From assembly GCA_003194425.1 (NCBI GenBank), contig PQXB01000001.1:263522-327521 (forward strand): a stretch of DNA of 64,000 bases. Reading direction: 5' to 3'. The position numbers and the translations under genes were made by a program. Below the pieces are notes generated by a model that ran no database searches, was not told the DNA's origin, and saw only the letters and a list, made by a program, of their open reading frames with translations. This document shows, piece after piece, positions 2,516 through 40,678 of the stretch (its first letter is position 1; each line of letters opens with the position of its first letter). This DNA comes from Candidatus Methanophagaceae archaeon (GTDB taxonomy: Archaea > Halobacteriota > Syntropharchaeia > Alkanophagales > Methanospirareceae).

Positions 2516-3065
2516 AAGCAGGGGAAATAGGGCAACTGCAACCGCGACTCACGGAACCGGAACGGTTGTGGCAGTGGGAACTGTGCTGGCAGGTGCAAGC
2601 ACGGGTCTTAATCTTGAGGGGATTTTTTATAACGGAGGGACGAAAATTGGGTATGTAGTTCATATTTTTATTGCACGAAGAAAAGTTAAAAAGCAGGAAA
2701 AAGTTAAAAAGCAGGATAAGATAAAAGAGATATTAAAGGAAGCGAAGATGTTAATGACAAACAAATATCATCACGCTCATCTGCATCATTGGTTGGATGG
2801 GAGCGCCGAAGAAGGAAGGAAAGAAGGAGTAAGTGAGGGGCGCTACAAAAATACCGCAAAAATATGAATAAAACAGGGAATAGAGAGATAGAGGATAGTA
2901 TAGAAGGGGGTATAAGAAGGTGAAAGGGAAGAGCGCGGAGAAAAGCAGGGAAAAAACGAGTGAAAGGGGAAAAGCAAGTAGAAATAGAGCAGAATACCGA
3001 AACCTTTTTATACATACTACCGAAAAGCATATATACCCCTTCAAAGAAATAGAAGGTATAAAAAA

Positions 3066-3089
3066 AATTAGGAGGTGAAAACAAAAAAA
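3066..3089 (+). promoter_or_regulatory. Conserved leader / Shine-Dalgarno element ATTAGGAGGTGAAAAC upstream of ATG
   Basis: Near-identical motif also precedes starts at 17473, 19890, 50921(-) and, as GGGGGTGA, 62916(-); complementary to the CCUCC 3' end of 16S rRNA. Confidence 0.5.
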
Positions 3090-3710
3090 ATGAAAACGAA
3101 GATTGGCAAAAAAAGTATAGGAATATTGATTGCAGCGATAATAGTTACTTCAGTCTTTGCAGCGATTGCGCCGACAATTGGTCAGGAAGGAGATGATGGG
3201 ATAGTAGAACCGGAATGGGCACCACCAGCACCGTGGGGACCGGGCTTAAATATTACAATAGCGACACCACCAGAAGATTCCTGCGTGCACGATACGATAA
3301 ACCTTACGTGGCTAAAGAATGGCACGACTACCCCGGCAGTTTTAAAGGATTATCTGTATGTAGCGCTCGTTGACTGTGGGTCGCCGTATTGTATGCACAC
3401 AATAGAAGAGAAAGTCTGCCTGCATGGTTGTACCTACTATGAGGTAGATCTCACAGATAATGATTGGCAGAAACACATAGACCAGTGCGAGGAGTTCTGT
3501 ATATATGTCTGGAATTCTTCTACCAGATTCGGACTACCTGACACCTCATACTTTAGGAACGGGACTACGCTTAGATATGACAAAGTAGAGCCGTGCATAG
3601 AAGCGGTCGATCCAATAGATGGCAGATGGGTTAACTGCACAGCGGATCTTGAGTTGAACGTTTCGGCATGTGACTGGAGTCATAATTCCGCAGTGGGAAT
3701 AGTAAAGTAA
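3090..3710 (+). CDS. Secreted cysteine-rich hypothetical protein
   Basis: ATG at 3090 sits 8 nt after AGGAGGTGA (ORF track starts at in-frame GTG 3075); N-terminal MKTKIGKK + hydrophobic signal peptide; many Cys. Confidence 0.5.
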   Translation: MKTKIGKKSIGILIAAIIVTSVFAAIAPTIGQEGDDGIVEPEWAPPAPWGPGLNITIATPPEDSCVHDTINLTWLKNGTTTPAVLKDYLYVALVDCGSPYCMHTIEEKVCLHGCTYYEVDLTDNDWQKHIDQCEEFCIYVWNSSTRFGLPDTSYFRNGTTLRYDKVEPCIEAVDPIDGRWVNCTADLELNVSACDWSHNSAVGIVK

Positions 3711-3799
3711 AGGAGAACAGAAAAAAAAGGACCATAAAAAATTTGGATAGAAGAGGAACAAAAACCTCTTCTATTTTTTTATTTTTTTTGAACGGAAAA

Positions 3800-4912
3800 A
3801 TGAAATCTGTTAGTGTTATTGCGATGATAATTTTTGCACTCGCCGTGGCAGTGGAAGTGGCAGCAGCAATTCCGCCCTCTCCAAAATACGAAGTATATCG
3901 CGGCGATGTCTTCGTTAACGGAACGCTTGCGCCAGACGGGACGAGAGTGTCAGTAAAAGTAGGTGCGCTCGACGAAGTGGAAGACAGCACAGAAAATGGA
4001 ACATATTGGATAGCAATTAAATCCTCGCAAGCGAGCCAAGGAGACATGGTAACGCTTAAAATATACGATGCAGTCGTGGAGACTGCCAAAATTGATAAAA
4101 ACGACTACATCTCTCAAAATTACATAAATTTATACCTTGAGGATTATTTAGTAAACGAATCCGCACAACCGGACGCTCTGCCCGAAACGACAACCGAGAG
4201 CAGGATATTAGTAAATTGGGCATTTTATTCCGGCTACGACTCAACAGGGGTGAAATGCTACGAGTTGTTAAGGAGATACGAAGATGAGAAAACATTTTCC
4301 TCGCTCGTTAAGACAAATAATACACGCTATTTTGACATTCTAAACGCTACTGGCGAATATTGCTACAGGCTCGTAACCTACGACTTCGTCGGCAACTCCA
4401 AAAATTCTACGCAGGATGTCTGCACAACCTTCGTCTCCAACAAGACCTTCACACTCAACGGCTTCGTGAAATACGAAAACGGGACAGGAGTCAGCAACGC
4501 AAACGTTACCCTTGAAAAATACTTCAATCCTGTAAATTCAACCACCACGACCGAGAAAGGCTACTACGAACTCGCAGCCTCTTGGAAGAGGTACAATTTA
4601 ACCGCGGCGAAAGGAGATGTTTTGGTCTGGGGGAGGGAAGGGAAAGGAGGAGCAAAGTACATTTCCTTCCTTAACAGTTCCGCCGTCGTAAATTTAGACG
4701 CAAACAAGACCGTGAATCTTACTTTGGTAGTGAAAGGGGATTTGGACGGGGACTGCGCGGTGGGAATTGCGGATGTTCGTGTGGTCGCGAGAATGCTAGT
4801 TGGAAGCGTCTCGGAAGACTTGAAAGCGGACTTTAACGGGAACGGTTGCGTGGATTTAGGGGACGCTGCGAAGTTGCTCGGGTTTGTTAAAGGTGGAGTG
4901 AGTAAGTTATAA
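3800..4912 (+). CDS. Secreted protein with C-terminal type-I dockerin-like domain
   Basis: Signal peptide MKSVSVIAMIIFALAVA; C-terminus GDLDGDCAVGIADVRVVARMLVG ... ADFNGNGCVDLGDAAKLLGFV matches the duplicated Ca-binding dockerin segment; ORF track starts at TTG 3743, ATG 3800 preferred. Confidence 0.65.
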   Translation: MKSVSVIAMIIFALAVAVEVAAAIPPSPKYEVYRGDVFVNGTLAPDGTRVSVKVGALDEVEDSTENGTYWIAIKSSQASQGDMVTLKIYDAVVETAKIDKNDYISQNYINLYLEDYLVNESAQPDALPETTTESRILVNWAFYSGYDSTGVKCYELLRRYEDEKTFSSLVKTNNTRYFDILNATGEYCYRLVTYDFVGNSKNSTQDVCTTFVSNKTFTLNGFVKYENGTGVSNANVTLEKYFNPVNSTTTTEKGYYELAASWKRYNLTAAKGDVLVWGREGKGGAKYISFLNSSAVVNLDANKTVNLTLVVKGDLDGDCAVGIADVRVVARMLVGSVSEDLKADFNGNGCVDLGDAAKLLGFVKGGVSKL

Positions 4913-4984
4913 GAGGTGAGTAAGTTATAAGAAACGAAATAAAAAGAATAAGAAGAATAAAGAATAGGAGAAGCACGAGAAAAA

Positions 4985-5422
4985 ATGGGGAAGAAGAAAA
5001 GAGCAAAAGTAAGAATAGGAATGCTAGTAGTAGCGGTAAGTGTAGTAGCGTTGTTTTCGGCATCGGCATTCGCACAGCCGCCGGGTCTGCCATTTGGAAA
5101 CGAGACGACAAACGAAACGGGATTGCCACCCATTCCAATTCCGCCGACACAGCCTCCTGAAAATGCGCCTCTTCCGTCGCCTTCGGTAACCGCAACACTG
5201 CCTGTCTCTGCACCTGCCACTCCAACTGCACCACCAACTGCACCACCAACTGCACCTCCAACTGCACCAACTACTCCTACCGTGACGGTAACAGCAGTAA
5301 CACCAAAACCGCAAGCCGAGACGCCAGGTTTTAGCGTTTCGGCGGTTGTTACAGCAGTGCTTGGTCTTGGGTTTGTGTTAGTGGGGCTTAAAAGGACGGG
5401 GCAAAGAAAGAAGAGCAAATAA
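4985..5422 (+). CDS. Small secreted Pro/Thr-rich protein with PGF-CTERM-like sorting signal
   Basis: Signal peptide, (PTAP)n linker, then PGF (5325..5333) + hydrophobic helix + KRTGQRKKSK tail. Confidence 0.6.
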   Translation: MGKKKRAKVRIGMLVVAVSVVALFSASAFAQPPGLPFGNETTNETGLPPIPIPPTQPPENAPLPSPSVTATLPVSAPATPTAPPTAPPTAPPTAPTTPTVTVTAVTPKPQAETPGFSVSAVVTAVLGLGFVLVGLKRTGQRKKSK

Positions 5423-7870
5423 ATGGAAAGGATAATTGGAATAGCAATTTTCGTTTTGCTAGTCGCAGGGGTAGGGGCAGCGAGCGCCGACACCTTCGTG
5501 CCAGGCGAGGTGATTGTTGGTTTCGAGCGGGCAACAGGAGTGCAGGCACAGGAATCGCTGATAAAAAGCTGCGGCGGGGCAGTAACAGACAGAGACACCA
5601 CGCTTGGCTGGGTGTTAGCGAAGGTAGAAGAGGGGAAAGAGCAGGAATTTATCGCGAACATTTCGGGAGAGCGGGGCGTGAGGTACGCGGAGCGGAACGG
5701 AGTTGTAAGAGCGCTTTACGTTCCTAACGACCCAAAATGGAGTGAGCAGTGGGGACTGGAGAGAATAAACGCGGACGACGCTTGGAAGGTCGAGAAAGGC
5801 AGCACGAGCGTTAAAATCGCGATCGTGGACACAGGCGTAGACTACAACCACGAAGACTTAAACGCGAACTACTTTAGCGGGGGCTACGACTGGGTTAACA
5901 ATGACAGCGACCCTTGGGACGACTCGGTAGGGCAGTACCACGGACACGGCACACACTGCGCTGGGATTGCAGCCGCGGAGATGGATAATTCTGCAGGAAT
6001 CGCCGGCGTCGCGCAAGTCGGAATTCTGGCTGAAAAAGTTATTAACGAGACTGGCTACGGCTCTTACTCGGACTTGGCTAGCGGAATTCAGCACGCCGCA
6101 GCGCAGGGTGCAAAAATAATAAGCCTGAGCGTTGGCGGGAGTTCGGCTTCGCCCACTCTAAAAAATGCCTGCAAGTACGCCTGGGACAAGGGCTGCCTCC
6201 TCGTTGCCGCTGCCGGGAACGACGACACAACCGAAGTCTGCTACCCTGCACGCTACGAGACTGTAGTCGCGGTCGGCGCGATAAATGAGGTGGGCGTTAA
6301 GTCGATTTACAGCAACTACGGACCTGATGTTGAGCTGGCAGCACCCGGCGACGACATTCTCTCGACCCTTCCGAACAACACTTACACCCGCAAATTTGGG
6401 ACTTCGGCGGCTACTCCTTTTGTCGCCGGTGTTGCAGGGTTAGTTTGGTCGCGGAGTCCCGAGCTGACGAACGAGGAGGTGCGGGAGCGGTTGCACAGGG
6501 TCAGCACAGACTACGACTGGGTTGAGTACGGTTTGGTGGACGCAGCGAGGGCGCTCTCCACAGCCGCGGGGTCAGACTACGCACGGGCGGGCTCGCTGAT
6601 TGTAACGATTGGAAAAAACGCAACGACGCAGGTTAGCGTCGGGAACGCGAAAAATATTACCGGCGTCTCGTTGAACCTTGAGTACGACGCCTCTAAACTC
6701 TCGGTTCAAAAAATAGCCGCGAACGAGACGACAAACCAATCTTCAAACGGCTCCTGCTACTGCTACAGCAACACAACCTCCGCAGGAGTCGCAAGAATCG
6801 TTTTCCTCACCGCAGAACCGCTCAACTCAACAACAAGCGAGACCCCGATTCTTGACATTGAATTCAAGGCAGTAGGGGGCGCAGACACTCGCTCTTACTT
6901 GAATTTGAGTAGCGTCGAGTTTGCGAACGCGGGCTACCTGCCTTTCGCACCTTCAAAAGTCTTCAACGGCACGGTAGAGGTGAAGTCCTCCCTTTACGGC
7001 GTGAACCTAACCGTAGAAGGAACGAAGTGTGCGTGGAATTTCACTGAGCCGAACGAGAACGCAACTTTCCTCCTTGCACTGCGCAACACGGGCGTCGTTG
7101 CTGACAACTACACGCTTGAGGTTGAGAGCCCAGAGGGGGCGGAGGTCGCTGCGTTGAACTCAACAGAAATAACAAACCTCGCACCAGAGGCGACCGCAAA
7201 AGTCCTGCTTCAAGTAACCTCCGCAGACGAGGGTACTTACACTGTAAATGTAACCGCGACCTCAGAATGCGACCTGGACATTTACGACCAAGTCACGACG
7301 AGGACGCTCGTAGCCACGAGATATAATTTGCAAACAAGCCTGCTCGAAGGCTGGAACCTGTTCGGAGTGCCGCTAAATGTGAGTGTCGAGGTCGGTGGCA
7401 GTGGCTGGAGTTTGCCCGCGGTCTTGGCTTCAATCGAGGGAAAATACGACTACCTCTCCTACTACAACACGAGCACTGGGAGAACAGATTTCTACGACCC
7501 GCTCAACACCGAATTCTCGACGCTAAAGACCCTGAAACCCGGAGCAGGCTACCTCGTCCACCTAACTGAAGAGGCACCTGTCTCGCTCGAGTTTGAGGGT
7601 GTGAAGTTAAGGGGGTTGGAAGTGCCGTTGGAGAGAGGTTGGAATATGTTCTCGGTTCCGTACGGCGTAGCGGATAAAACGCTACCCGCGGTTCTGAAAT
7701 CAATCGAGGGAAACTACGACTACATTTACTACTACAACGCGACCACAGGGGAAATGGACTACTACGACCCGCTTAATCCCGAACTTTCAACGCTGAAAAT
7801 TTTAGAACCCGGAGCTGGGTATTTAATACACATAATTAACAAAGTAACATATTTTCCGGCAATTAAATAA
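5423..7870 (+). CDS. Secreted subtilisin-like serine protease (S8) with internal cohesin-like domain and C-terminal tandem modules
   Basis: Catalytic triad motifs DTGVDYNHEDL, HGTHCAGIAAA, GTSAATPFVAG; cohesin-like segment ~6590..6990 (LEYDASKLSV, ARIVFLTAE, FNGTVEV); two ~75-aa C-terminal repeats. Confidence 0.85.
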   Translation: MERIIGIAIFVLLVAGVGAASADTFVPGEVIVGFERATGVQAQESLIKSCGGAVTDRDTTLGWVLAKVEEGKEQEFIANISGERGVRYAERNGVVRALYVPNDPKWSEQWGLERINADDAWKVEKGSTSVKIAIVDTGVDYNHEDLNANYFSGGYDWVNNDSDPWDDSVGQYHGHGTHCAGIAAAEMDNSAGIAGVAQVGILAEKVINETGYGSYSDLASGIQHAAAQGAKIISLSVGGSSASPTLKNACKYAWDKGCLLVAAAGNDDTTEVCYPARYETVVAVGAINEVGVKSIYSNYGPDVELAAPGDDILSTLPNNTYTRKFGTSAATPFVAGVAGLVWSRSPELTNEEVRERLHRVSTDYDWVEYGLVDAARALSTAAGSDYARAGSLIVTIGKNATTQVSVGNAKNITGVSLNLEYDASKLSVQKIAANETTNQSSNGSCYCYSNTTSAGVARIVFLTAEPLNSTTSETPILDIEFKAVGGADTRSYLNLSSVEFANAGYLPFAPSKVFNGTVEVKSSLYGVNLTVEGTKCAWNFTEPNENATFLLALRNTGVVADNYTLEVESPEGAEVAALNSTEITNLAPEATAKVLLQVTSADEGTYTVNVTATSECDLDIYDQVTTRTLVATRYNLQTSLLEGWNLFGVPLNVSVEVGGSGWSLPAVLASIEGKYDYLSYYNTSTGRTDFYDPLNTEFSTLKTLKPGAGYLVHLTEEAPVSLEFEGVKLRGLEVPLERGWNMFSVPYGVADKTLPAVLKSIEGNYDYIYYYNATTGEMDYYDPLNPELSTLKILEPGAGYLIHIINKVTYFPAIK

Positions 7871-7886
7871 AATAGGAGACAGAGAA

Positions 7887-10800
7887 ATGGGAGAAAAGGG
7901 AAGGAAGAGAGAGGGGGGAAAGTGGAAGAAGAGACGACTGATTGGAGTAGCGGCGGTGGGGGCGATATTAGTGACGACTTTTGCTTCGCAGGCTGTGTGC
8001 GCATCGGTGCCGTTGTTTAATGAGGCAATACTTAGAGGGTATGTTTTCGATACGCAGGGAAATCCAATACAAAGGGCATTAATTGAATGGCGAGATAGCG
8101 AGACTATGGAACTATTTGAACTTACAACCACAACCTACACAGGATATTATTCCACGCCACACTTGTTCAACGACGCGGGCGCCGTAAGATCCTTGATAAC
8201 CGCCGCAAAGACAGACTTCTCTACTAACTCAACAATAATAACGACCGAGCCTGCTTTTCCGCCTACATTTTACGAACTGAATTTTACATTGCTTGAAATA
8301 GCGGAAACAGGCAGCATAAACATAAACGAGATAATGTACAATCCAAGCACGGAGCAAGGAAGCGACACCGTGCTGGAGTGGATTGAACTGCGCAACGACG
8401 ACACAGCAGCAGTGAACCTAAACGGCTGGACGATTGCGACACCCGAAGTAGGAAAAATAACAGAAGAAATAATTCTGCAGCCGGGAGGTTACGCAGTGCT
8501 TGCGAGGAACAAGGACGCGTTTGAGGCCTACTACGGTGCCGGTGGCGAGTTGTCGTGCTCGGTGGTAGAAGTGGAAATGAGACTTGGAAATGCAGAGGAC
8601 ACGGTAGTCTTGAAAGACGGTGCAGGAACAGAAATCGACCGGGTGTCCTACAAGGACGACTGGGGTGCGGACGGTAACGGGAAAACACTGGAACTAATTG
8701 GAGCAGGCGGGGGCTGGCGAGAGAGCGTAGCAGACGACGGAACGCCTTGTGCAGAGAACAGCGTAGTTTTTATGAAGCCCGACCTGACGGTTACCGTTTC
8801 AGACGGCTCGCTTAACTGCGGCTTCCTCTTCGGGAACGAGAGCAACGAGGTCTGCGTAACTGTCGAGAACATCGGCACTGACAGGACAGACGCGTTCAAC
8901 CTCTCCTTCGATATGAACGGCTTCAGCACAGAAGAGCGAGTGGCTGGCGGGTTAGTGGCTGGCGGGAATGCAACAACGGTCTGCGTCGCCGACCCGACGC
9001 TGCGAAGTGCGGGCGATTCGGTGACCGTTCGCGTCGTCGCAGACTGCAACGGCGAAATTACTGAGTCGAACGAGACGAACAACGCAGCCAGCCTCACAAC
9101 AACAGTCGTGAACAACGGCTACAAAGGAAAACGATACACCGGCGGCGAGGACATCGCCAGTTGGAAGAAATTTGAACTCAACGGCGACCTGCTCTACTCT
9201 GTCGGCGACAGTTTCTATCTGAGTGCTTACACCTACAAGCACTGGACGGAGTACGCTGCAAACTGGACTGTGAGCGACCTGCAAGTTCCTGATACTGAAA
9301 CTGCGACCGTTAGAGAGGCGAGGTTGTACGTGCCTTACACCTGGGACAAGGCAGGTGTGATGCCCGACGAGGTGAGCCTGACCTTCAACGGCGTGACTCA
9401 AACGTTGGACGCACACTACACGGATGAGAAAATGCACGCTACCAGCTACCCCTACGGAATGCTGGTATACAATGTAACCGAAGATTTGGATACAAGCGCA
9501 AGCGGCAACACCGCAGTACTCACTAACTCTCACCTCGGTGGCGGAAATGTGTCAATTCGCGGAATGCTTCTCACGGTGATTTACGCAGACGAGAGCGAGC
9601 CACTGCGTGAGATATTTGTTAACGAGGAGTTTGACCTGCTCTACGGCGGGGCGTCAAAATGCACGACGCCCGAGGAGGCGACCGCTTACGCTCCTTTCGG
9701 AACTGCTGACACTGAAGATGTTCTTTCTGCCACGCTGGTAACAGTCGCTCCTGGTGCAGGACCGAGTGAGGGGGAGCTGACCTTTAACGGGCAGAAATGG
9801 ACGGACGTGTGGAGTTTTGCAGGCGCTACGCAAATAGGAATAGACAAGCGAGAAGTAACTTCGTTCTTGCAGGCGGCCGAGAACGAAGCGGGGTTCCAAA
9901 GCAGCGCCGACTACTTTGAACCGAGCAACGCAATTCTCGTTGTAGAACACATTGAGCGGGTAAACCTAAACATAAACGAGATAATGTACAATCCAAGCAA
10001 GGAGCAAGGAAGCGACACCGTGCTGGAGTGGCTTGAACTGCGCAACGACGACACAGCAGCAGTGAACCTAAACGGCTGGACGATTGCGACACCCGAAGTA
10101 GGAAAAATAACAGAAGAAATAATTCTGCAGCCTGGAGGTTACGCAGTGCTTGCGAGGAACAAGGACGCGTTTGAAAATTACTACGGTGCCGGTGGCGAGT
10201 TGTCGTGCTCGGTGGTAGAAGTGGAAATGAGACTTGGAAATGCAGAGGACACGGTAGTCTTGAAAGACGGTGCAGGAACAGAGATCGACCGGGTGTCCTA
10301 CAAGGACGACTGGGGTGCGGACGGTAACGGGAAAACACTGGAATGGAATGCGACAGGCTGGTTTGAGAGCGAAGTAGAGGGCGGAACGCCTTGTGCAGAG
10401 AACAGCGTAGTTTTTATGAAGCCCGACCTGACGGTTACCGTTTCAGACGGCTCGCTTAACTGCGGCTTCCTCTTCGGGAACGAGAGCAACGAGGTCTGCG
10501 TAACTGTCGAGAACATCGGCACTGACAGGACAGACGCGTTCAACCTCTCCTTCGATATGAACGGCTTCAGCACAGAAGAGCGAGTGGCTGGCGGGTTAGT
10601 GGCTGGCGGGAATGCAACAACGGTCTGCGTCGCCGACCCGACGCTGCGAAGTGCGGGCGATTCGGTGACCGTTCGCGTCGTCGCAGACTGCAACGGCGAA
10701 ATTACTGAGTCGAACGAGACGAACAACGCAGCCAGCCTCACAACAACAGTCGTGAACAACGGCTACAAAGGAAAACGATACACCGGCGGCGAGGACATCG

Positions 10801-13436: not shown

Positions 13437-14986
13437 AAAGGAGGATTAAAATTTGCGGTGCGACGCTGCTGTTGGTCTTGGTAGTTTCGGCGTTTGCAGT
13501 GCCAAGCGGAGTGGCCGGAGTGGCAGCCCTTGAGAGACCGACTTACGGCGTTGAACTGACCGTAGACGGCGGCAACAAGACTGCGAACCAGTCCGTGCGG
13601 CTTGGTGAGAACGCGACCTACAACCTGAGCCTTACGAACGCAGGAAATGCCACAGACCGCTACACGCTGAACTTTTCGAACCCGAACAACGCGACAACCT
13701 GCGGGCTGCTGCTCGGTGCGGCGAGTCTCAAAAAGAACCTAACGACAGCAGTCTTGGTGCCCGGAGAGAGAGCGAATTTAACGCTCGTCGTCGGAAACTC
13801 GACCGAAGGAGTGTTCAAAGTGAACGTAACCGCTACCTCTGTGAACGACCCTGCAAATGCAACCGTTAACACAACGACTACGGTTGGGACAGCACCAACG
13901 AGCCCTTCACTCGTCTCCTACACCATTTCCAACCGCACAATAACGCCACCCCAAACCACAGAAATAGATGTTAGATTCTCGGAGCAGGTGGAAGCGTGGA
14001 TAAAAATCGAAGATTCCGAGAGAAATTTGGTGAACGAGTTGTACCACAGCCCTGCCGTGACCAACCCAAAACCTAAAATCTGGGACGCAACCTTCACAAA
14101 CGGAACACTCGTTGGAGACGGCGACTATTTTGTAAATGTTACTGGGACCTGCGCATGCAGCAGCATAGAATGCACCGTAACGAACGACACCGAAATTATC
14201 ACCGTTACCCTCCCGCCAGACACCGACACCACGCCACCCGCGGTAACAGACCCAACTGCAACGCCCGAGACGATTCTTGCCGACGGAGTCCAAACCTCGC
14301 TCTTGAGTGTGACTGTCAAAGATGAGACCGCGGTTGACACTGTCGTAGTGAACCTCTCGCAAATCGGCGGGTCGCCAGCACAGGTCTTGGAACTCATCAA
14401 CAGCACGCTCTTTCTCTACGGCACGACGACAAACGCGTCGGTGGGAACGCCACCCGGAACCTACAACCTAACAGTCTCTGCAACTGACATTTACGGGAAC
14501 TCTAACGCGTCGGTGAGCTTTCGGCTGACCGTTACCGAACCAAGACTCGCTGTTTCAATTTCCACCGACAAAACAGACTACGCCCCTGGCGAGACAATGC
14601 AAATCCAACTGAACTTGTCAAATCCCACGCCCGCCGACCAAATGCTGCTGTTTGCGTGGTACTTTGCGATCCCTGACTACAGCTACCAGACCGCCGTCGT
14701 AGCACCTACGCTTGTTATTTTACCAGCGGGCTGCGACTTTTCCTTCCTCCTTCCAATGCCTGTGGGCGACTGGGGTGCGACAGATTTCAACGCTACTTGG
14801 TCTGTTGAACTGCTCAACCCGCTGACCTACAGCGTCGTAGACGACGACACTGCCGAGTGGCGTTACACGGCTGTGCGTGCGGCGGCAGGAGCGGAAATTG
14901 CAGGAGAAGAGGCGGCAGCAGCAGAGAAAATCGGTGCGGAAATAAAGAGAGAGCTAAACAAAGAGGGAGGGGTGCTACCTTTTTAA
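13433..14986 (+). CDS. Secreted protein with Ig-like (CARDB/NEW3-type) region and the shared C-terminal domain
   Basis: Signal peptide MKRRIKICGATLLLVLVVSAFA; C-terminal SISTDKTDYAPGETMQIQLNLSNPT...AEWRYTA then charged tail; start overlaps stop of the upstream gene (ATGA). Confidence 0.8.
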   Translation: MKRRIKICGATLLLVLVVSAFAVPSGVAGVAALERPTYGVELTVDGGNKTANQSVRLGENATYNLSLTNAGNATDRYTLNFSNPNNATTCGLLLGAASLKKNLTTAVLVPGERANLTLVVGNSTEGVFKVNVTATSVNDPANATVNTTTTVGTAPTSPSLVSYTISNRTITPPQTTEIDVRFSEQVEAWIKIEDSERNLVNELYHSPAVTNPKPKIWDATFTNGTLVGDGDYFVNVTGTCACSSIECTVTNDTEIITVTLPPDTDTTPPAVTDPTATPETILADGVQTSLLSVTVKDETAVDTVVVNLSQIGGSPAQVLELINSTLFLYGTTTNASVGTPPGTYNLTVSATDIYGNSNASVSFRLTVTEPRLAVSISTDKTDYAPGETMQIQLNLSNPTPADQMLLFAWYFAIPDYSYQTAVVAPTLVILPAGCDFSFLLPMPVGDWGATDFNATWSVELLNPLTYSVVDDDTAEWRYTAVRAAAGAEIAGEEAAAAEKIGAEIKRELNKEGGVLPF

Positions 14987-15009
14987 CCTCCTCTTTTTTC
15001 TTTATTTTT

Positions 15010-16401
15010 ATGACACGGAAAAGAAGCGGAAGTGCAGTTCTTCTCGTCACAGCACTCCTTATTTTCGCTTTTATTTCTCTAACTTTAATTCTAACTCTAA
15101 CTCCCAGCGTTAGCGCTGCGGAAAGTCTAACTCCCAGCGTTAGCGCTGCGGAAAGCGCTGCGGAAAGCGAGACCGAAAATAAATTTTGCATCACGAAAAT
15201 CAGCCCCAGGAATATACAGCCCGCAGACATTTCCACAGTGAGCGTAACGATAAAAAATATCGGCTCGCATTCCGCATTTCACGTCGCGACCGAGGTTGAG
15301 ACGGCTAAGATGCTTGCGGGCGAGACGGGCGAAACGGGTGAGACAACGCCTGTAAAGGTCGTAGGAAGGGCGAAGAAGAGCGTAGGGACGACTTCTCTGA
15401 ACTCGCTTGGTTGCGACCGAGAAGCAACAGTCAAGTACGACTTTTATGTCGAGAAGGACGCAGAAGCGAGCACCTACAACATTCCGCTGAAAGTTCTCTG
15501 GCGGGAGAAGCCCGAGGAGGTGGGGAGAGAGGGGTGGAGAGGAAGAGAAGGAGAAGAGAACGAGGTGCGAAGCGAGACATTGTATTTTGGGGTCAGAGTG
15601 CTTGGGCAGTCGAGAGCGGCGGAAATTGATGTTGTCAATGTTACAACCGCTCCTGCTGGTGCAGGAATTAAGCCTGGCGCGGAGGCGACCCTAAAAATCA
15701 AACTCAAAAATATCGGCGGTTTGACGGTTAGCAGGCTTAAGGTAAGGCTGACTGCAGAAGAGCCGTTCACACCGCTTGATTCCGACTTAGAGCAGTACCT
15801 AACAGACCTAAAGCCAAACGAGACGAGGACAGCGTATTTTAATCTCTCGGTGGACAGAGAAGCCGCGAGTTCGTGCTACGAACTACCGCTCGTCTTGGAG
15901 TACGAGGACGAGTTCGGCAGTCACGAAAAGAACACCTCGGTCGGCGTTTCCGTGAAAGGCAGCCCGAGAGTTCTTATTCAGGAAATTATTCTCGAGCCCA
16001 GCAAATTGAGTAGTGGCACCGAAGGGCTGCTTATGATTCGGCTGATAAACACAGGCACGGAGAGTGCAGAGGACACGAAAATAAGAATCGCAGGAGCAGA
16101 AGGGATTTTAACCGAAGGGCACCAGTTCATCGGCGAAATCGCACCCGACGAATCGGAAACCGCAACCTTCGGCGTCTCGGTTGCTGAAGAAGAAGTTGAG
16201 ACAGGAAAACACGGTCTGACGATAAAAATCGCCTACGAGGACGAGTTCGGAACGAGCTGCCCTGCAAACTCCAAAATCTACGAAATAACCGTCTTTGAGT
16301 CCGAGCCGTTCTTGCCGACGAAATATGTTTACGCTTTGGCGGGCGTTGCAGCGGCGGCGGTGGTAGGTTACCTTTTACTAGTAGTGAGGCTCAAAAAATG
16401 A
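15010..16401 (+). CDS. Cell-surface protein with N-terminal signal peptide and C-terminal transmembrane anchor
   Basis: ATG 15010 preferred over ORF-track start 14857 (which overlaps the upstream gene); C-terminus YALAGVAAAAVVGYLLLVVRLKK; short tandem repeats near N-terminus. Confidence 0.65.
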   Translation: MTRKRSGSAVLLVTALLIFAFISLTLILTLTPSVSAAESLTPSVSAAESAAESETENKFCITKISPRNIQPADISTVSVTIKNIGSHSAFHVATEVETAKMLAGETGETGETTPVKVVGRAKKSVGTTSLNSLGCDREATVKYDFYVEKDAEASTYNIPLKVLWREKPEEVGREGWRGREGEENEVRSETLYFGVRVLGQSRAAEIDVVNVTTAPAGAGIKPGAEATLKIKLKNIGGLTVSRLKVRLTAEEPFTPLDSDLEQYLTDLKPNETRTAYFNLSVDREAASSCYELPLVLEYEDEFGSHEKNTSVGVSVKGSPRVLIQEIILEPSKLSSGTEGLLMIRLINTGTESAEDTKIRIAGAEGILTEGHQFIGEIAPDESETATFGVSVAEEEVETGKHGLTIKIAYEDEFGTSCPANSKIYEITVFESEPFLPTKYVYALAGVAAAAVVGYLLLVVRLKK

Positions 16402-17255
16402 GGAGAACGCAAAAAAAAGGAACGGGGAGACAGGTTTTTTTGTTGGTTTTGTTTCTGTGCTATTTTCTGCTCTTGACTCCTTACATTGTGCACACGAACC
16501 TGAACGAAGTTGGAGGAGGGGTTGTCGAGGACTTGAAGACCGTCCCAGTTCCGTCTCTTCCTGCAGACATTCAGGACCTTGTCTTTGACTTTGGCGGGGA
16601 CGAAAGCGACTGCACGGTTCTTTTGCTGGAAAACAGCGTCTCGGGCGAGAGAACAGCCGTTGTAACCGTCCAAGACTGCGAAATCCAAAAGGGCGCGGTG
16701 GTGAAGGTTACAGACAAAATAATCGAGTGGTTCGTGGACTGGCACGCCTACCAGTCCTGCAGCGGCTTTGACTTTGGCGAGAAGTTTGGAGTCCTTGTTG
16801 TCGGCGAGGTCGCAGAGGTTAGTGCAGCAGAGTCGGGCGTTGAAAAGGTTCTTTCCTCCCGCCCCCTCGGCAGTCCCCTCTTCACGCTTTCAAAGGCGTC
16901 TTTTCTCTTTGCTCCGCTGCTGCTCGTAGTTTGCCTTAGTCTCGGCACCAGAAACCGCTTTTACCTCTGGAACTTCGCTGCGGTCTTGGCTCTCTACTCT
17001 TTTGAAGTCTTTCTGCTCAACACCGCAGGGAGCGTGCTGCACGAGGTTGCGCTAGCGGGAGCAAGAGCTGGGGTAGGGGCAGAGGGAGGAGGAGTGGGTG
17101 CAGCAGAGGGTTGGAAATATTTTGGCTACTTGTTTGTGCTGTTAGTCCCCTTCACCGTTCTTTTCGCACGCTACGAGGAGAGCGAAGAGGGGCAGAGGAG
17201 ACTAAAAAAGTTTTACGCGGGGCTGCTTGAGTTAGTTGATCGTTTGTTTCAGTGA
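16398..17255 (+). CDS. Hypothetical membrane protein
   Basis: ATG overlaps stop of the upstream gene (translational coupling); several hydrophobic segments. Confidence 0.5.
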   Translation: MRRTQKKGTGRQVFLLVLFLCYFLLLTPYIVHTNLNEVGGGVVEDLKTVPVPSLPADIQDLVFDFGGDESDCTVLLLENSVSGERTAVVTVQDCEIQKGAVVKVTDKIIEWFVDWHAYQSCSGFDFGEKFGVLVVGEVAEVSAAESGVEKVLSSRPLGSPLFTLSKASFLFAPLLLVVCLSLGTRNRFYLWNFAAVLALYSFEVFLLNTAGSVLHEVALAGARAGVGAEGGGVGAAEGWKYFGYLFVLLVPFTVLFARYEESEEGQRRLKKFYAGLLELVDRLFQ

Positions 17256-17472
17256 AACTACTTAAAGACGTAAAAGAAACTTTTAATGAAGGAGAAAAAG
17301 CAGAGAAAGAAAAATGTCAGGCTCGTCTGTTTCAAGTTGGATGAGAGCGTCTGGGGGGAACGCCGTGGGAAAAATAGAAATAAGAGAGGAAAACCGAAGC
17401 GGAGAGGAAAGACGCTTTACAAGTAAAAACCCTCTAAAGTCAAAAAAAAATTAGGAGGTGAAAAAAGAAAAA

Positions 17473-19188
17473 ATGAAAACCAAAAGACTACTAAGCCTTT
17501 TAATAGTTTTTACAGTGGTGCTGAGTGTAAGCGTGAGTGCAGGAACGGTCTCGGCAGCGACGCCGAACGACGGGCCAGGTTCGAGCACGAGCAGCGGTGC
17601 GTTTTCTGGAGCAGAGGTGTTGGGTTTGCCGAGGAGTTTCACGCTCGAGGACAGCTTTGGCTACACTTGGGATTTGGACATCGTTTTTGGATGCGTGCTG
17701 TACGGCACAAAGACCTCGAGCATTGGGACCTACCCAGCGTACGGGTACGTATTCGGGAACGAGATGGTTCTGTGGGCTGACAACCCCGGTTCTCCCTACT
17801 CGGACAGCTTTGCCTACACCGGAATGTGGAACTACAAAACAATGAAATTCGACGGAAAATGGGTCGGCTACCCAAAAGGGTCAGGCAATGTCTCAATGTG
17901 GTTTGCTAAGAGTGCGGTAGGCGAAGGAGAAGAAAAGACCTGGACGAGCGAGAATGTAGAAGAAGGACCTGACGCGGCGGCAAGTGCAGGCACAGAGACA
18001 GCGGTTGCACAACAAGCGGTTGCACAACAAAACCTCGATGCTGCGCCGAGCACTGAAGGTAGCGCTAGTGCTAGTGCGACATTCTTGATTGACGGAGAGA
18101 ACGCGGAAGAAGAGATTAGCGGTCTGTTTAGTCGCGGTGCGATTTGCCTCGAAGACAGCTTTAGCTACACCTGGGATTTGGACATCCTCTACGGCTGCAT
18201 CTTGTACGGCACAAAGACCTCGGGTATTGGAACTCATCCCGCGTACGGCTTCGTATTCGGCGACGAAATGTTCCTCTGGGCTGACAATCCTGGTGGGGAA
18301 TATTCAGACAGCTTCGTCTACACCGGGAAGTGGAACGCCGCGGTAACGCTCTTCAACGGAACCTGGATTAACTATCCGATGGGGTCTTCAGGCACGGTCG
18401 AAGTGTGGCCCTGCGGTGGTGGACCAACTGAGACAGAGTACTACGCCGTAATCGCGGGCGAGGGTTACGGTTGTAGTTACGCCGACAGCGACGCCTACGA
18501 TATGTACGGACTTCTTACGAGCGAGTTCAACAACAACTGGAAGAAGGAGAACGTCAGGCTGTTAGTGAGCACCGCGGACGGGACGAAACACGACTGCACA
18601 CGGACAAAGATTCGGAACGGGATTTCGTGGATGGCGAGCGAAGCGGACGAGGACGATGTTAGCCTCTTCTTCTACGCGGGGCACGGCGGTTACCAGACGG
18701 ATGTGACACCACTCGACGAAAGCGACGGCAACGACGAATACATTTGCCCCGAGGGCGGGAACATTCTTGACGACGAACTCAACAACTGGTTGTCTGCGGT
18801 GCCTGGGTACAAGCTGGTCGCACTCGACTCCTGCTTCAGCGGCGGGTTCATTAAAGCCGACGGAGCAGAGGTTAGGAGCGTGCCGGGACTGCCGAGAATT
18901 GACCGAACCGACGGTTTCAGAGAAGACCTCTGCAAGAAGGGGTTCAACGTGCACACCGCCTGCGACGAGGACGAGAGTGCCTACGGCTACGCAGCACTGA
19001 ACAACGGCGTCTTCACTTACTACCTCGTGCAGGGTCTTTACGGACCCGCAGACTCGGACAGCGACGGAGACATAGACTCGTTTGAAGCACACACCTACAC
19101 AAGACCAAAAGTAATTTCGTACACTGGCGGCGACCAGAACCCCTGGCGCTGCGCTGGCACAACTGACCCGCTGATTTGGGTGCTGTAA
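17473..19188 (+). CDS. Secreted caspase-domain (C14 / metacaspase-like, clan CD) cysteine peptidase with two N-terminal tandem domains
   Basis: ATG 17473 after AGGAGGTGA; signal peptide; His motif FYAGHGG and Cys motif LDSCFSGG; ~100-aa domain repeated twice (FTLEDSFGYTWDLDI... / ICLEDSFSYTWDLDI...). Confidence 0.7.
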   Translation: MKTKRLLSLLIVFTVVLSVSVSAGTVSAATPNDGPGSSTSSGAFSGAEVLGLPRSFTLEDSFGYTWDLDIVFGCVLYGTKTSSIGTYPAYGYVFGNEMVLWADNPGSPYSDSFAYTGMWNYKTMKFDGKWVGYPKGSGNVSMWFAKSAVGEGEEKTWTSENVEEGPDAAASAGTETAVAQQAVAQQNLDAAPSTEGSASASATFLIDGENAEEEISGLFSRGAICLEDSFSYTWDLDILYGCILYGTKTSGIGTHPAYGFVFGDEMFLWADNPGGEYSDSFVYTGKWNAAVTLFNGTWINYPMGSSGTVEVWPCGGGPTETEYYAVIAGEGYGCSYADSDAYDMYGLLTSEFNNNWKKENVRLLVSTADGTKHDCTRTKIRNGISWMASEADEDDVSLFFYAGHGGYQTDVTPLDESDGNDEYICPEGGNILDDELNNWLSAVPGYKLVALDSCFSGGFIKADGAEVRSVPGLPRIDRTDGFREDLCKKGFNVHTACDEDESAYGYAALNNGVFTYYLVQGLYGPADSDSDGDIDSFEAHTYTRPKVISYTGGDQNPWRCAGTTDPLIWVL

Positions 19189-19239
19189 GGCAAGAGAGTA
19201 GAACAGCAGAGAAGAGTAGAAAGGACTGTAAAAAAGAAG

Positions 19240-19290
19240 CCCGGCGTTTTTAGTTTTACTGCGCCGCGCCGGGTGGTTATTTTTTTTTGT
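19240..19290. terminator. Hairpin plus T-tract between convergent genes
   Basis: CCCGGCG...CGCCGGG inverted repeat followed by an oligo-T run. Confidence 0.35.
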
Positions 19291-19783
19291 ATTTTTGGTT
19301 TTTGTATTTTTGGTATTTTTGGATTAGAATTATTGCCGCGGTTAGGGCAGCAACTGACAAAACCGAGATTAAAACGACCTTTTTAAACTTTGTTTTAGAC
19401 TCTTCCGACGGCGGTGAGGGAATTGGGTAGGCTACTTCTACTCCCTCTGCTCCTCCTGCTCCTCTCGGGACGGCGCTGGACAAAATGCGCCCGCTCTCTT
19501 TAGCTACCCAGACTCGCACGTTCGGGTACTGCAGCCCCCGCTCCAACTGCTCGTTCGTCCACCAGTCAACCGCCCAGCAGGGAGTTGAGTTGAAGGACTC
19601 TTCGGAGACGACCGAGAAGGCGTCGGGGTGCTTTGAGAGGAGGGCAGCAGCCTCGGCAGTACTCTTCGAAATCTCCTCTGCTTCGCTCTCGGTTACCGCT
19701 GCAGCCGAGACAACTGCAACAGCGGTCGCCGCTAAGAAAATAAGGGCGAGGCACAAGACTATTTTCTCTCTTCTTTTCGGCAT
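19277..19783 (-). CDS. Hypothetical small membrane-anchored protein
   Basis: N-terminal and C-terminal hydrophobic segments, lysine-rich tail KYQKYKNQKYKKK; sits between two protease genes. Confidence 0.5.
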   Translation of the reverse strand: MPKRREKIVLCLALIFLAATAVAVVSAAAVTESEAEEISKSTAEAAALLSKHPDAFSVVSEESFNSTPCWAVDWWTNEQLERGLQYPNVRVWVAKESGRILSSAVPRGAGGAEGVEVAYPIPSPPSEESKTKFKKVVLISVLSVAALTAAIILIQKYQKYKNQKYKKK

Positions 19784-19889
19784 AATTTTTGTAACCCTTT
19801 TTATAAAGAAGGTTCTTGCTTAAAAATATAGTTAAAGCAAAAGGCAAAACAAAAGGCAAAATAAATGCATTAGGAGGTGAAAACCAAAA

Positions 19890-21893
19890 ATGAAAACAAA
19901 ACAAGATGAGAAAAATAAATCAAAAGCGAAGACAAAGACAAAGGCGATTTACGCGGTGCTACTGCTGGTAGTTTTGGCGCTCGGAGTTTTAGTCGCAGTG
20001 CCAAGCGGTGCGGCAGCAGAAGAGCAGACAGCAGAAGAAAAAACGATTGCGGAGTTGCAGCAAGAGATTTACGAGCAGGGCTACAACTACACGGTCGCCG
20101 AGAACAGGATTACGAGACTTCCGGCAGAAGAGAGAGCGGCAGTCTGCGGCTACAAACCGCTGAAAGCACCCGAAGATCCTGTTCCAGACGAAAATATCAG
20201 GTTCGTTGCTGACGCACCGAGCAGTCAAGGAGCGAAAACAGAAGCAGAGGCAGAAGTCAGGGCGCCAAGTTCTTACGACGCGATGGCACTCGGATTTGTG
20301 ACGCCTGTAAAAGACCAGAGTTATCCTATTCCGTGTGGCAGTTGCTGGATCTTCGGAGCGACCGCGGAATTCGAGTCTGATGTCGCGATCGGCGAAGGAA
20401 CGCTGCTTGACTTCGCGGAGCAGGAGGTCGGGGACTGCAACATTTGGTCAAGCGTCGGCGGCTACGACTTCTGCGACGGCGGGAACGCGTTTATGACCAC
20501 TAACTTCTTTACCAAGCACGGCGCAGCGGACGAAGCCTGCCACCCCTACGCAGCGACACCGCAGACCTGCCAAGACTGCCCTATTCTAAAGAAAGTGGAC
20601 AACTGGCGGATGATTACGGGCAGCAGCGGGGAAAGCCAAATAACGACAATCAAGAACGCGATTCTGAACTACGGACCTGTCTACTCAACAATCTACGCAA
20701 ACGCAGGATTCAAGGCTTACAACAGCGGCGTCTACGAGTACTGGGAAGCAAACGAGACGAACCACGCGATAGAAATTATCGGCTGGGACGACTCGAAAGT
20801 GCACTCGCACGGAACCGGAGCGTGGCTGATAAAGAACAGTTGGGGAACAGATTGGGGAACAGCGGGACCGTACCCGGGCTGCGCCTGGGTAGCGTACGGA
20901 GCAGCAAACCTCGGGGACTACACGAGTGCAGTCACAGGCTACAACGACTTCAACACGGACGACGAGATTTTCTACCACGACGAGTGCGGCTGGATGGGGT
21001 GGTGCACGGGTTACGACACGCCAACAGCCTACGGAGCGGTGCGTTTCACGCCAACGCAGGACACGACACTGACCGCGGTTGACTTCTGGGCTGTTGACCC
21101 AGGAATGCAGTACGAGATAAAAATATTCGACACCCGAAATGCAGTAGGCAGCGGAAAATACACCTTCAGCAGCCAACTCGGCATTACTCAAACAGTAACC
21201 ACAAACGAGCCGGGCTACTACTCCGTGCCACTCACGACAACAGTGCCACTAACAGCAGGCGACGACTTCATCGTGCAGGTGAAAGCAACGACTACGACCG
21301 GCTGGGGCTACCCAGCACCGATCGACTACTGCACTGACTCAGACCTGAACTGGGCGGGAATTGCAACCTCTTCAGGCGAGAGTTACGTGAGCCCTGACGG
21401 GACGGAGTTTGAGAAATACGGCACCGGCGGGAAAGACCTCGGAATAAGAGCCAGAGCAGAGCGAGAAGCCCCGGAAGAACCAGAAATCAGCGTAGAGACA
21501 GACAAGTTCGAGTACTGCCTCGGCGAGACGATGGAAATTAAAATAGCAGTCTCAAACCCGACGAGCAGCCCAGTAACTTTGAAATGGTTCTTTGGGTCGC
21601 CCACGCTGGGAGTTTGGCTGCCGATGTACGTAGGCTCGCTGCCTGCAGGCTACGCGAACACTTTTGTAGTGCCGCTGCCCGTCGAGAAGTGGAGCGAGAC
21701 GCCGTTCAGTGCGGTCTGGTACGTGGACTTGCAGGACCCGGAAACAGGAAAAGAGTTAGCAGCGGACTGTGCGTGCTGGTCGTACGCCTACCCGTACTGC
21801 CCGAAGTGTGAGTCAGAGCCAAAGCTAACGCAGCCTTTAGAAAAAATAGCAGCAGGAAGAGAAATAGGAGAACAAATAAAAGGCTCTGCGTAA
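19890..21893 (+). CDS. Secreted papain-like cysteine protease (C1) with the shared C-terminal domain
   Basis: Cys motif CGSCWIFGA, His motif NHAIEIIGWDD, KNSWGTDWG; signal peptide; C-terminal ETDKFEYCLGETMEI...CWSYAYPY. Confidence 0.85.
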   Translation: MKTKQDEKNKSKAKTKTKAIYAVLLLVVLALGVLVAVPSGAAAEEQTAEEKTIAELQQEIYEQGYNYTVAENRITRLPAEERAAVCGYKPLKAPEDPVPDENIRFVADAPSSQGAKTEAEAEVRAPSSYDAMALGFVTPVKDQSYPIPCGSCWIFGATAEFESDVAIGEGTLLDFAEQEVGDCNIWSSVGGYDFCDGGNAFMTTNFFTKHGAADEACHPYAATPQTCQDCPILKKVDNWRMITGSSGESQITTIKNAILNYGPVYSTIYANAGFKAYNSGVYEYWEANETNHAIEIIGWDDSKVHSHGTGAWLIKNSWGTDWGTAGPYPGCAWVAYGAANLGDYTSAVTGYNDFNTDDEIFYHDECGWMGWCTGYDTPTAYGAVRFTPTQDTTLTAVDFWAVDPGMQYEIKIFDTRNAVGSGKYTFSSQLGITQTVTTNEPGYYSVPLTTTVPLTAGDDFIVQVKATTTTGWGYPAPIDYCTDSDLNWAGIATSSGESYVSPDGTEFEKYGTGGKDLGIRARAEREAPEEPEISVETDKFEYCLGETMEIKIAVSNPTSSPVTLKWFFGSPTLGVWLPMYVGSLPAGYANTFVVPLPVEKWSETPFSAVWYVDLQDPETGKELAADCACWSYAYPYCPKCESEPKLTQPLEKIAAGREIGEQIKGSA

Positions 21894-27690: not shown

Positions 27691-27933
27691 ATGGCGTAAT
27701 GATACAAAAATTAGTAAATATTCTTTTATTTAAAAGAAAGGAAATATTAAAAAGGTGGTTGAAAATGAAAGGCGCTAAAAAAGTTCATTTCCCTGTTCTC
27801 GTGGAGAGGGATGAAAATGGTTTTTTGTGGTTGAATGTCCTTTTCTTCAAGGGTGCTACATACAGGGCAAAACGCTGGACCAGGCGTTGAAAAACAGAAC
27901 ATGCATGAAGAGAAGAAAAAGAGCAAAAGAATA

Positions 27934-33373: not shown

Positions 33374-33415
33374 TCTCTCATTCTTATCTTTATTATGATA
33401 TTTATTACCTCCTTC

Positions 33416-40388: not shown

Positions 40389-40678
40389 GGGGAGAGAGGA
40401 AGGGCAGCTGCCGGCCAACCTTTAAAAAAGCGTTTTTCTTGAAGGGCAGGCTGAGGAAAGTCCCCCCACCGAAAAAGCACGAACGTTGAGAGGGCGTAAG
40501 GCGAGAGTCTTGGCTCTGGGATAGAAACGAACCGTGCCACACAAAAGCGATGATTCCGTGAGGAAGAGGTCGTGTGGTTCTGCGGATGGAACGACCAACC
40601 TCGTGGGTGCAAGCCTCAAGAGAAGGTGCAAAGATGAATGCTGCCGAAACAGAAGGGGGCTTACTCTCCTCACTCCCC
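40389..40678 (+). ncRNA. rnpB: RNase P RNA
   Basis: ORF-free region carrying GAGGAAAGUCC (CR-I), AGAUGAAUG and ACAGAAGGGGGCUUAC (CR-IV/V); 5' GGGGAGAGAGG can pair with 3' CCUCACUCCCC (P1). Confidence 0.8.

Follow-up and report, generated by a model that had tools for sequence, protein, structure and literature searches.

A shared leader with an extended Shine-Dalgarno sequence precedes genes for exported proteins in an ANME-1 archaeon

The DNA analysed here is a 64-kb stretch of an archaeal genome (the window), and the element in question is a short A-rich leader found directly upstream of five of its genes, three of them in a cluster of genes for predicted exported proteins at 3090-21893 and two elsewhere. 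The window contains genes for the archaeal exosome subunits Rrp4, Rrp41 and Rrp42, Hef, deoxyhypusine synthase, A-type ATPase subunit B, FrhB and an archaeal RNase P RNA (40392-40675, +). The nearest relatives of its C1 peptidase, at 50-66% identity, come from metagenome-assembled genomes (MAGs) labelled Methanophagales, Candidatus Methanoxibalbensis or Methanospirareceae, that is, from anaerobic methanotrophic archaea of group 1 (ANME-1); an exact look-up of the C1 peptidase sequence gave no match. The source of the window is an ANME-1/Methanophagales archaeon. In L142, an independent ENA assembly of a near-identical strain, the segment comprising the genes for a C14 peptidase, a protein of 168 amino acids (aa; hyp168) and the C1 peptidase is near-identical (96% identity for hyp168), and the window leaders are reproduced.

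The five genes that follow the leader encode a 206-aa exported protein of unassigned family (hyp206; 3090-3710, +), the C14 (caspase/metacaspase-fold) peptidase (17473-19188, +), the C1 papain-type peptidase (19890-21893, +), a 1253-aa exported NosD/right-handed beta-helix protein (47160-50921, -), and a 501-aa exported DUF2341 protein (61411-62916, -). An earlier note on this DNA had claimed that the same leader stands before all five, and this was borne out. The sequence ATTAGGAGGTGAAA, or ATTAGGGGGTGA in one copy, lies 8-12 nucleotides (nt) upstream of the ATGs at 3090, 17473 and 19890 on the forward strand and at 50921 and 62916 on the reverse strand. The 16-mer ATTAGGAGGTGAAAAC with up to 2 mismatches matched the window 4 times versus 0.03 expected, and none of 100 shuffles reached 4. 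These matches were located at 3067-3082(+), 17450-17465(+, 1 mismatch), 19869-19884(+) and 50941-50926(-, 2 mismatches), and the fifth copy, ATTAGGGGGTGA, was found at about 62938-62927(-), before the ATG at 62916.

A sequence-only leader model was built from 19 leaders and searched over 479 kb of ANME-1-type DNA. Copy 1 (3060-3101, +) consists of an A-run, TTAGGAGGTGA at 3068-3078, an A-rich spacer and the ATG at 3090, and scored 31.9 bits (E 5e-8). Copy 2 (17440-17484, +) has the same layout, with TTAGGAGGTGA at 17451-17461 and the ATG at 17473 (38.8 bits, E 3.5e-10), and copy 3 (19858-19901, +) has TTAGGAGGTGA at 19870-19880, the spacer and the ATG at 19890 (25 bits, E 8e-6). On the reverse strand, copy 4 (50910-50948) has TTAGGAGGTGA at 50940-50930 before the ATG at 50921 (29.3 bits), and copy 5 (62905-62951) has TTAGGGGGTGA before the ATG at 62916 (22.4 bits). 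After the A-rich spacer, all five copies read ATG-A(A/C)N-AC(N)-AAA. The MKTK-type starts described in the earlier note hold for all five in the wider form M-x-T-K but in the strict form for only three, since 3090, 17473 and 19890 encode MKTK, 50921 encodes MNTK and 62916 encodes MTTK.

When positions -120 to +40 of the five copies were aligned, similarity was confined to about -35 to +12; the regions farther upstream were unrelated, and the promoters and upstream parts of the 5' untranslated regions (UTRs) differ. The longest pairwise block, between hyp206 and the C14 gene, is alike in 36 of 38 nt (94.7%), and the remaining pairs share 19-22 nt, so that what is common within the window amounts to an A-rich block of about 20-40 nt. 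A 32-nt leader consensus, searched with up to 3 mismatches, found no match because the spacer varies in length. A possible sixth, degenerate copy, ATTAGAAAGTGAAAC, before the gene for a 517-aa protein (hyp517; about 13406) was missed by the leader model at E<=1 and was treated as a product of chance or A-richness. Short tandem duplications, different in sequence in each case, were seen directly upstream of three leaders: an 18-nt duplication (AGACGGTTCCCCGCGAAG twice) at about 50946-50985(-) before the NosD leader, CCTCTTATCTT twice at about 62960-62985(-) before the DUF2341 leader, and AAAGGCAAAA-CAAAAGGCAAAA at 19840-19865(+) before the C1 leader. The corresponding place in relatives holds ACCTAAA twice.

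The leader core was compared with the 3' ends of 16S rRNA genes taken from metagenome contigs by means of the target of the ANME-1-350 probe. The sequence used as the target of probe ANME-1-862, which may not be the right one, matched none of these 16S loci; their lineage was tied instead through contig overlaps, in which the 16S contig L106 overlaps L004, a Methanophagales MAG contig, at 91% nucleotide identity, and the 16S contig L042 matches L009/L017. In the main group of ANME-1-type 16S genes the 3' end reads GGATCACCTCCTAA followed by A, T or C. The core TTAGGAGGTGA is the exact complement of UCACCUCCUAA, and its 9-nt part AGGAGGTGA pairs with UCACCUCCU, the universally conserved 16S end, the reference in both cases being the 16S genes of related contigs and not the window's own. 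Because the core mirrors the 16S 3' end of the lineage in this way, the leader is an unusually long Shine-Dalgarno (SD) site. Its position agrees with this, the end of TAGGAGGTGA lying 8-12 nt from the ATG in all copies. The core element is thus an ordinary SD site and the leader a tidy variant of the usual translation signals, not a new kind of element; taken by itself, the core would point to strong translation initiation rather than to co-regulation.

Pairing energies to GAUCACCUCCU were calculated for 50 window genes. The five leader genes, at -14.7 to -15.8 kcal/mol, were the top five; AtpB (-11.2 kcal/mol) and a NUDIX gene (-10.1 kcal/mol) came next, and most other genes had a weak SD or none. 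False internal GTG/TTG starts, produced by a gene caller that chose the start with the best SD, were kept out of the statistics. In 1.12 Mb of fetched DNA the pattern TAGG[AG]GGTGA was confined to 16S 3' ends, where it stands as the reverse complement, and to sites before open reading frames (ORFs) with signal peptides. As a separate observation, many ANME-1-type rRNA genes (L020, L028, L042, L057, L086, L120 and others) carry a T-run, CCTCCTAAATTTTTT, after the 16S 3' end. Its complement, AAAAAATTTAGGAGGTGA, equals the leader of the relatives' contigs L140 and L141 over about 19 nt, and the leader model matches these rDNA ends. The 16S trailer varies between loci, which indicates that this likeness is probably a coincidence of A/T-rich flanks.

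For hyp206 and the C1 gene, TATA-like boxes were found 60-92 nt before the ATG, with TTTTTATA at -85 and -92, respectively, versus 16-42 nt for several cytoplasmic genes; many cytoplasmic genes with a box at the latter distance have no SD and look leaderless. The boxes at 60-92 nt, and the conservation of the UTR in relatives, indirectly support a position of the SD within a transcribed 5' UTR. A different assignment of the same letters is that the mRNAs are leaderless, the A-run and TTA forming a TATA box and GGAGGTGA a promoter-proximal site or one bound by a transcription factor, so that the five genes would be co-regulated in transcription. The A/T-rich run does lie about 23-34 nt before the ATG, as far as an archaeal TATA box would stand from a leaderless start, a strict-pattern search gave no clear upstream TATA box for the C14, NosD and DUF2341 genes, and many other window genes look leaderless. 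A promoter is nevertheless improbable: the G-rich part is perfectly complementary to the 16S 3' end over 9-11 nt, an unlikely coincidence for such a site, the consensus TTTTTATA box of the relatives stands about 135 nt upstream with the intervening stretch conserved like a transcribed UTR, and the C14 gene of L143-L145 has a TATA box farther upstream than its SD.

The leaders are essentially unstructured, with minimum free energies of -4.7 to -8.4 kcal/mol per 90 nt and z-scores of -0.6 to +0.9, and searches of Rfam at the gathering cut-off and at E<=1 returned no family at the leaders. A structured cis-regulatory RNA controlling a secretome regulon, whether a riboswitch, a thermometer or a leader bound by a small RNA or a protein, might be suspected from the short tandem duplications just upstream of several leaders and from the longer UTR of the relatives, which folds a 5' hairpin (z = -1.4 to -2.3) and in which CCUAAA can pair with UUUAGG at the edge of the SD. 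Such a structure is very hard to reconcile with window leaders that fold no better than shuffled sequences and lack an Rfam match even at the relaxed threshold, with upstream repeats that differ in sequence among copies, and with the lack of any structure conserved between window and relatives; of all the explanations considered, we give it the least credence.

The distribution of the leader was examined next to predicted export. Signal peptides were called by a Kyte-Doolittle heuristic and inspection, as a basic n-region followed by a hydrophobic h-region. The leader precedes 5 of 15 predicted exported or single-anchor proteins of the window versus 0 of 36 others (Fisher one-sided p ~1.3e-3), and none of the approximately 36 cytoplasmic or multipass-membrane genes has it. 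Over the 479 kb of ANME-1-type DNA the leader model gave no match before any cytoplasmic ORF; outside its training set it matched before another C1 orthologue and a signal-peptide ORF at 6326 of L004, at 16S 3' ends, and once weakly (E 0.09) before a membrane-anchored stomatin-like ORF. The restriction to signal-peptide genes thus survived the comparison named in the earlier note as able to refute its reading, equal frequency before cytoplasmic genes being seen neither in the window nor in the 479 kb. A strong SD by itself is not peculiar to genes for exported proteins; what is peculiar to them, within the DNA sampled, is the extended format of A-run, TTA and MK. In L004, a 211-aa gene has an MKTK start and the same leader as hyp206, a likeness known for the start and leader only. 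At 6326-6400 of the same contig the leader-type site is followed by ATGAAAAAACAACTTTAG, and the signal peptide resumes in another frame (KTTLAVLALVVLAVSISIPSYA); this indicates a frameshift in the A-run, due either to an assembly error or to a slippage-prone poly-A.

Contigs of relatives from other ANME-1 populations were reached through homologues of hyp168. In L140 and L141 each exported-protein gene forms its own unit behind ...CCTAAAAAATTTAGGAGGTGAAAAAGGAAAAAA-ATG-AAA-(A/G)(G/A)C-GAA-AA(A/G)-ATA-AAA. Upstream identity was 94.5% over 164 nt between the S8 and C14 peptidase genes of L140, 95% over 147 nt between the S8 gene of L140 and the C1 gene of L141, and 93.5% over 232 nt between the CARDB and PPC/Big_13 genes of L140. 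Overall, 150-230 nt are alike at 92-95% before the non-homologous S8, C14 and C1 genes of the relatives (L140, L141, L146), and both the first seven codons, MK(S/N)EKIK, and the TTTTTATA box, about 135 nt before the ATG, fall within the common blocks. The independent Joint Genome Institute contig L146 has the same module before its C1 gene. At the conserved site beside the C14-hyp168 pair, the gene behind this cassette is S8 in L140 but C1 in the other four cases (L141, L146, L142 and the window), and identity breaks off just after codon 7. Because the downstream genes are non-homologous, the likeness in the relatives is due to copying and not to convergence: in these related genomes only, the promoter, a UTR of about 100 nt and the leader module have been copied before non-homologous exported-protein genes. 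In more distant ANME-1 genomes (L006, L009-L012, L017) the C1 orthologues have no SD leader, and their TATA box stands about 25 nt before the ATG, which marks the leader as a trait of a single subclade. The co-regulation or repeated reuse of one 5' module suggested in the earlier note stands in part, since reuse is seen directly over 150-230 nt in the relatives, but the window copies share only about 20-40 nt, and the SD core is not evidence of co-regulation.

Whether the window copies have a common origin is a further matter. Pure convergence would make the five leaders independent, each shaped by selection for the strongest possible SD, for A-rich surroundings free of structure and for a signal peptide rich in Lys at its start, and every conserved position does have a plausible function of this kind (anti-SD pairing, lack of structure, basic n-region). 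We consider it rather doubtful: ATT before AGGAGG and an exact ATGAAAAC after the spacer are common beyond the needs of pairing, hyp206 and the C14 gene agree in 36 of 38 nt, and the copying of the whole cassette between non-homologous genes in close relatives means that a copying mechanism exists in the lineage. Descent of the five window leaders from such a cassette, with decay to the functional core, is plausible on these comparisons. The broadest form of this idea would be a portable 'secretome expression cassette' of ANME-1, comprising a promoter, a 5' UTR of about 100 nt, an 11-12-nt SD and the first 4-7 codons, which would be recombined before unrelated exported-protein genes, with the downstream gene swappable at a fixed site (S8 versus C1 beside C14-hyp168); the genes would form a coordinately expressed regulon and the window leaders would be decayed copies. 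We put this forward only tentatively, as a possibility that we would not bet on.

The reading we prefer, with a probability of roughly 0.75, is that the shared leader is a translation-initiation module that heads transcription units of exported proteins. The module consists of an SD of 11-12 nt, (A)TTAGGAGGTGA, complementary to the 3' end of the ANME-1 16S rRNA gene; flanking A-runs that would keep this SD unpaired; an A-rich spacer of 8-12 nt; and ATG-AAA-ACN-AAA, which encodes MKTK, the basic n-region of a Sec-type signal peptide. It would lie at the 3' end of the 5' UTR and head the 3090-17255 operon and the C14, C1, NosD-like and DUF2341 genes. Operon-internal and cytoplasmic genes have a weak SD or none. 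The likely effect of the module would be twofold, efficient recruitment of ribosomes and protein starts that all carry positive charge for membrane targeting, and we infer that the five window copies would bring about coordinated high expression. Several points weigh against this. Only the 9 nt of AGGAGGTGA are certain to pair, the TTA extension needing 2-3 further 3' nt on the mature 16S rRNA; the location of the SD in the mRNA is deduced from the DNA; the signal-peptide calls come from a hydropathy heuristic; and the leader was scanned for in 64 kb of this genome, with highly expressed cytoplasmic genes, such as mcr and those for ribosomal proteins, lying outside that stretch. Plain GGAGGTGA/GGGGGTGA sites precede cytoplasmic genes in other ANME-1 genomes (L007, L018, L019). 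In favour of convergence, likeness among the window copies stops about 35 nt before the ATG and about 12 nt inside the gene, beyond which promoters and upstream UTRs differ, and a short A-rich block of 20-40 nt is compatible with independent origin.

Initiation by pairing between SD and anti-SD is established in bacteria and in many Euryarchaeota, and the leader resembles it in being purine-rich, complementary to a 16S 3' end that contains CCUCC, and separated from the start codon by a short A-rich spacer. It differs from the usual SD in its length (9 nt certain, 11-12 possible), in its flanking A-runs and the ATG, typically ATG-AAA, that follows, and in being limited, in the sampled DNA, to first genes encoding signal-peptide proteins. 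Bacteria such as E. coli show a bias toward A-rich second codons (AAA-Lys) and the basic n-region of Sec signal peptides. ATG-AAA and a Lys-rich n-region right after an accessible ribosome-binding site are likewise present here; unlike in that bias, the first 8-21 coding nt belong to a DNA-level block common to unrelated genes. Closer in organization are the upstream homology box of the Borrelia burgdorferi erp/mlp lipoprotein loci and the conserved 5' region of the Mycoplasma vlp/vsp genes, in which promoter, ribosome-binding site and signal-peptide start are near-identical before several surface-protein genes. Those cassettes act as recombination junctions, to which the occurrence of S8 or C1 behind one cassette at one site in the ANME-1 relatives may be compared. 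The bacterial cassettes serve paralogous lipoproteins and antigenic variation, whereas the archaeal cassette fronts non-homologous enzymes and adhesin-like proteins, and within the window itself only a core of about 40 nt is common.

The first eight genes of the cluster, from 3090 to 17255 with gaps of 0-90 nt or overlaps, form a probable operon that begins with hyp206. The second gene (3800-4912, +; its most likely start is the ATG at 3800) encodes an exported protein with a CarboxypepD_reg-like domain (Pfam) and a C-terminal dockerin-like double Ca-binding repeat. A gene for a 145-aa exported protein (4985-5422, +), with a Thr/Pro-rich linker and a PGF-CTERM-like anchor, was added to the gene list between the dockerin-like and S8 genes; its tail ETPGFSVSAVV...LKRTGQRKKSK shows a PGF motif, a transmembrane (TM) segment and a basic end, and it had no NCBIfam match. 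The exosortase-like sortase of the window (8TM_EpsH, 142 bits) is not ArtA. Next come the S8 subtilisin-type peptidase (5423-7870, +), with a Fervidolysin pro-domain, a cohesin domain and two C-terminal repeats of about 85 aa; a 1849-aa surface protein (7887-13436, +) with two LTD, three CARDB and three DUF3344 domains; hyp517 (13433-14986, +), an exported protein ending in a helix; a 463-aa CARDB/NEW3 protein with a signal peptide, a C-terminal TM segment and a basic tail (15010-16401, +), for which 15010 is a more likely start than 14857; and a 285-aa membrane protein (hyp285; 16398-17255, +), kept upstream of the C14 gene in relatives.

Three protease classes, S8, C14 and C1, had been named for this cluster, and Pfam upheld all three, with catalytic residues in place. 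Peptidase_S8 scored 186 bits versus a cut-off of 21.8, with D136 (DTG), H175 (HGT) and S328 (GTSAA); Peptidase_C14 scored 49.9 bits versus 21.4, with the H404 (YAGHGG)/C454 (DSCFSG) dyad, an assignment that does not imply the metacaspase subfamily; and Peptidase_C1 scored 130.6 bits versus 20.7, with Q143, C149 (CGSCW), H291 and N316 (NSW), in a protein that also has a Lectin_like domain (88.6 bits). The exported character claimed for the whole cluster likewise stood: signal-peptide-like N-termini, with the layout of a Sec signal peptide (e.g., MKTKRLLSLLIVFTVVLSVSVSAGTVSA|A), were found by the heuristic and inspection in 11 of 11 genes of 3090-21893, and the LTD and CARDB domains were confirmed by Pfam. 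The cohesin domain of the S8 protein scored 31.4 bits versus a cut-off of 24.1; in the 3800-4912 product Dockerin_1 reached 19 bits, below the 22.9 cut-off, with the repeats DLDGDCAVGIADV and DFNGNGCVDLGDA visible. Encoded two genes apart, the cohesin and the dockerin-like tail suggest a putative in-operon cohesin-dockerin complex. The S8 C-terminal repeats, GWN(L/M)F(G/S)VP...YYN(T/A)(S/T)TG...PGAGYL, and the two repeats of about 80 aa in the N-terminal half of the C14 peptidase (residues ~55-135 and ~225-305) had no Pfam match.

The cluster had also been called an island, and as a foreign insert this finds no support. GC content is 0.46-0.55 inside versus 0.44-0.57 outside, Pfam scans of the window showed no integrase or transposase, no flanking tRNA was seen, and the core order CARDB-hyp285-C14-hyp168-protease is conserved in relatives. 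These genes make up a conserved surface-protein cluster and not an acquired island.

The small membrane protein between the two protease genes, hyp168 (19277-19783, -), is a type-I membrane protein with a signal peptide, a conserved ectodomain of about 95 aa, in which C69, W70, D73-W74-W75 and QYPNVRVW are invariant, and, at the C terminus, a TM helix and a tail rich in Lys. The homologues found numbered only 16, all about 140-170 aa long. Its gene is tail-to-tail with the C14 gene, as it is in 8 of 8 further loci, and this conserved pairing supports a functional link between the two. Where the contig reaches far enough, it is also divergent from a leader-bearing exported-protein gene, namely C1 in L141, L142 and L146, S8 in L140, and an exported protein of unassigned family in L143/L144. 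Searches with the single sequence and the family profile against Pfam, NCBIfam and PDB yielded sub-threshold noise only; LolA_like appeared below threshold in 17 of 17 family members (best E 0.005). The helix-plus-four-strands topology, which we take to be PepSY- or cystatin-like, is an unconfirmed impression. An inhibitor or chaperone role, as proposed earlier, found no family, solved-structure or fold match in these databases and remains a guess.

One C-terminal Ig-like domain of about 120 aa ends four otherwise unrelated exported proteins, namely the DUF3344 giant (12888-13433, +), hyp517 (14477-14983, +), the C1 peptidase (21462-21890, +) and the DUF2341 protein (61414-61899, -), and an amphipathic tail, G[AR]EIExxLK, comes after the domain. 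An exhaustive profile search with it matched 608 protein clusters, 298 of them at E<=1e-10, versus one match in a word-indexed search. Among the matches listed, it is nearly always at the extreme C terminus, behind NosD, PKD, CARDB, FG-GAP, C39-like or CbiX passengers, and no Pfam model covers it in the nine matches scanned. It looks like an undescribed anchoring or sorting module. A trio of genes at 31740-34252(-) encodes the bacterial-type exosortase (XrtA-like), an EpsI-like protein and a CPBP/CAAX intramembrane protease, and L014 (124-2657) has these three genes right next to its C1 peptidase orthologue; no PEP-CTERM-type substrates were identified for the window exosortase. Elsewhere, 41972-42388(-) encodes a small exported protein that combines a (PGG)n repeat with a C terminus rich in Cys and Trp, and 63663-63734(-) encodes one tRNA. 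A DNA methylase fused to an Mrr-like nuclease domain (27835-29370, +) and a separate Mrr-like gene (30110-30565, +) flank the OMP decarboxylase gene and have near-identical C-terminal ends (...NKSPDTPQKVGLFES...); the pair may be a duplicated restriction-modification fragment.

ANME-1 has been reported to 'harbor ample extracellular peptidases' (PMC9123169), and many dockerin and cohesin proteins have been reported from ANME-1 genomes (PMC9012536), which the S8 protein with its cohesin domain near a dockerin-like protein resembles. Neither the shared leader nor the C14-hyp168-C1/S8 arrangement is described in the passages of these two papers that were available. A full-text literature search for ANME-1 together with Shine-Dalgarno found no paper, and a wider one on archaeal SDs, signal peptides and leaderless mRNAs brought up nothing relevant.

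ANME-1 archaea are uncultured and key in marine methane oxidation, and to our knowledge almost nothing is known of how they control gene expression. The locus is a candidate for the extracellular proteolytic machinery of a methane oxidiser, with three peptidase classes, a putative cohesin-dockerin pair and, in hyp168, a conserved partner of C14. The signature (A)nTTAGGAGGTGA(A)n-ATG-AAA would be a simple tag for exported, presumably heavily translated proteins, as opposed to the mostly SD-poor or leaderless cytoplasmic genes, and could help to correct start codons in ANME-1 MAGs. The copied cassette in relatives suggests that secretome genes have been wired into common expression by recombination, which, if true, would be a compact example of the shuffling of a regulatory module in archaea.

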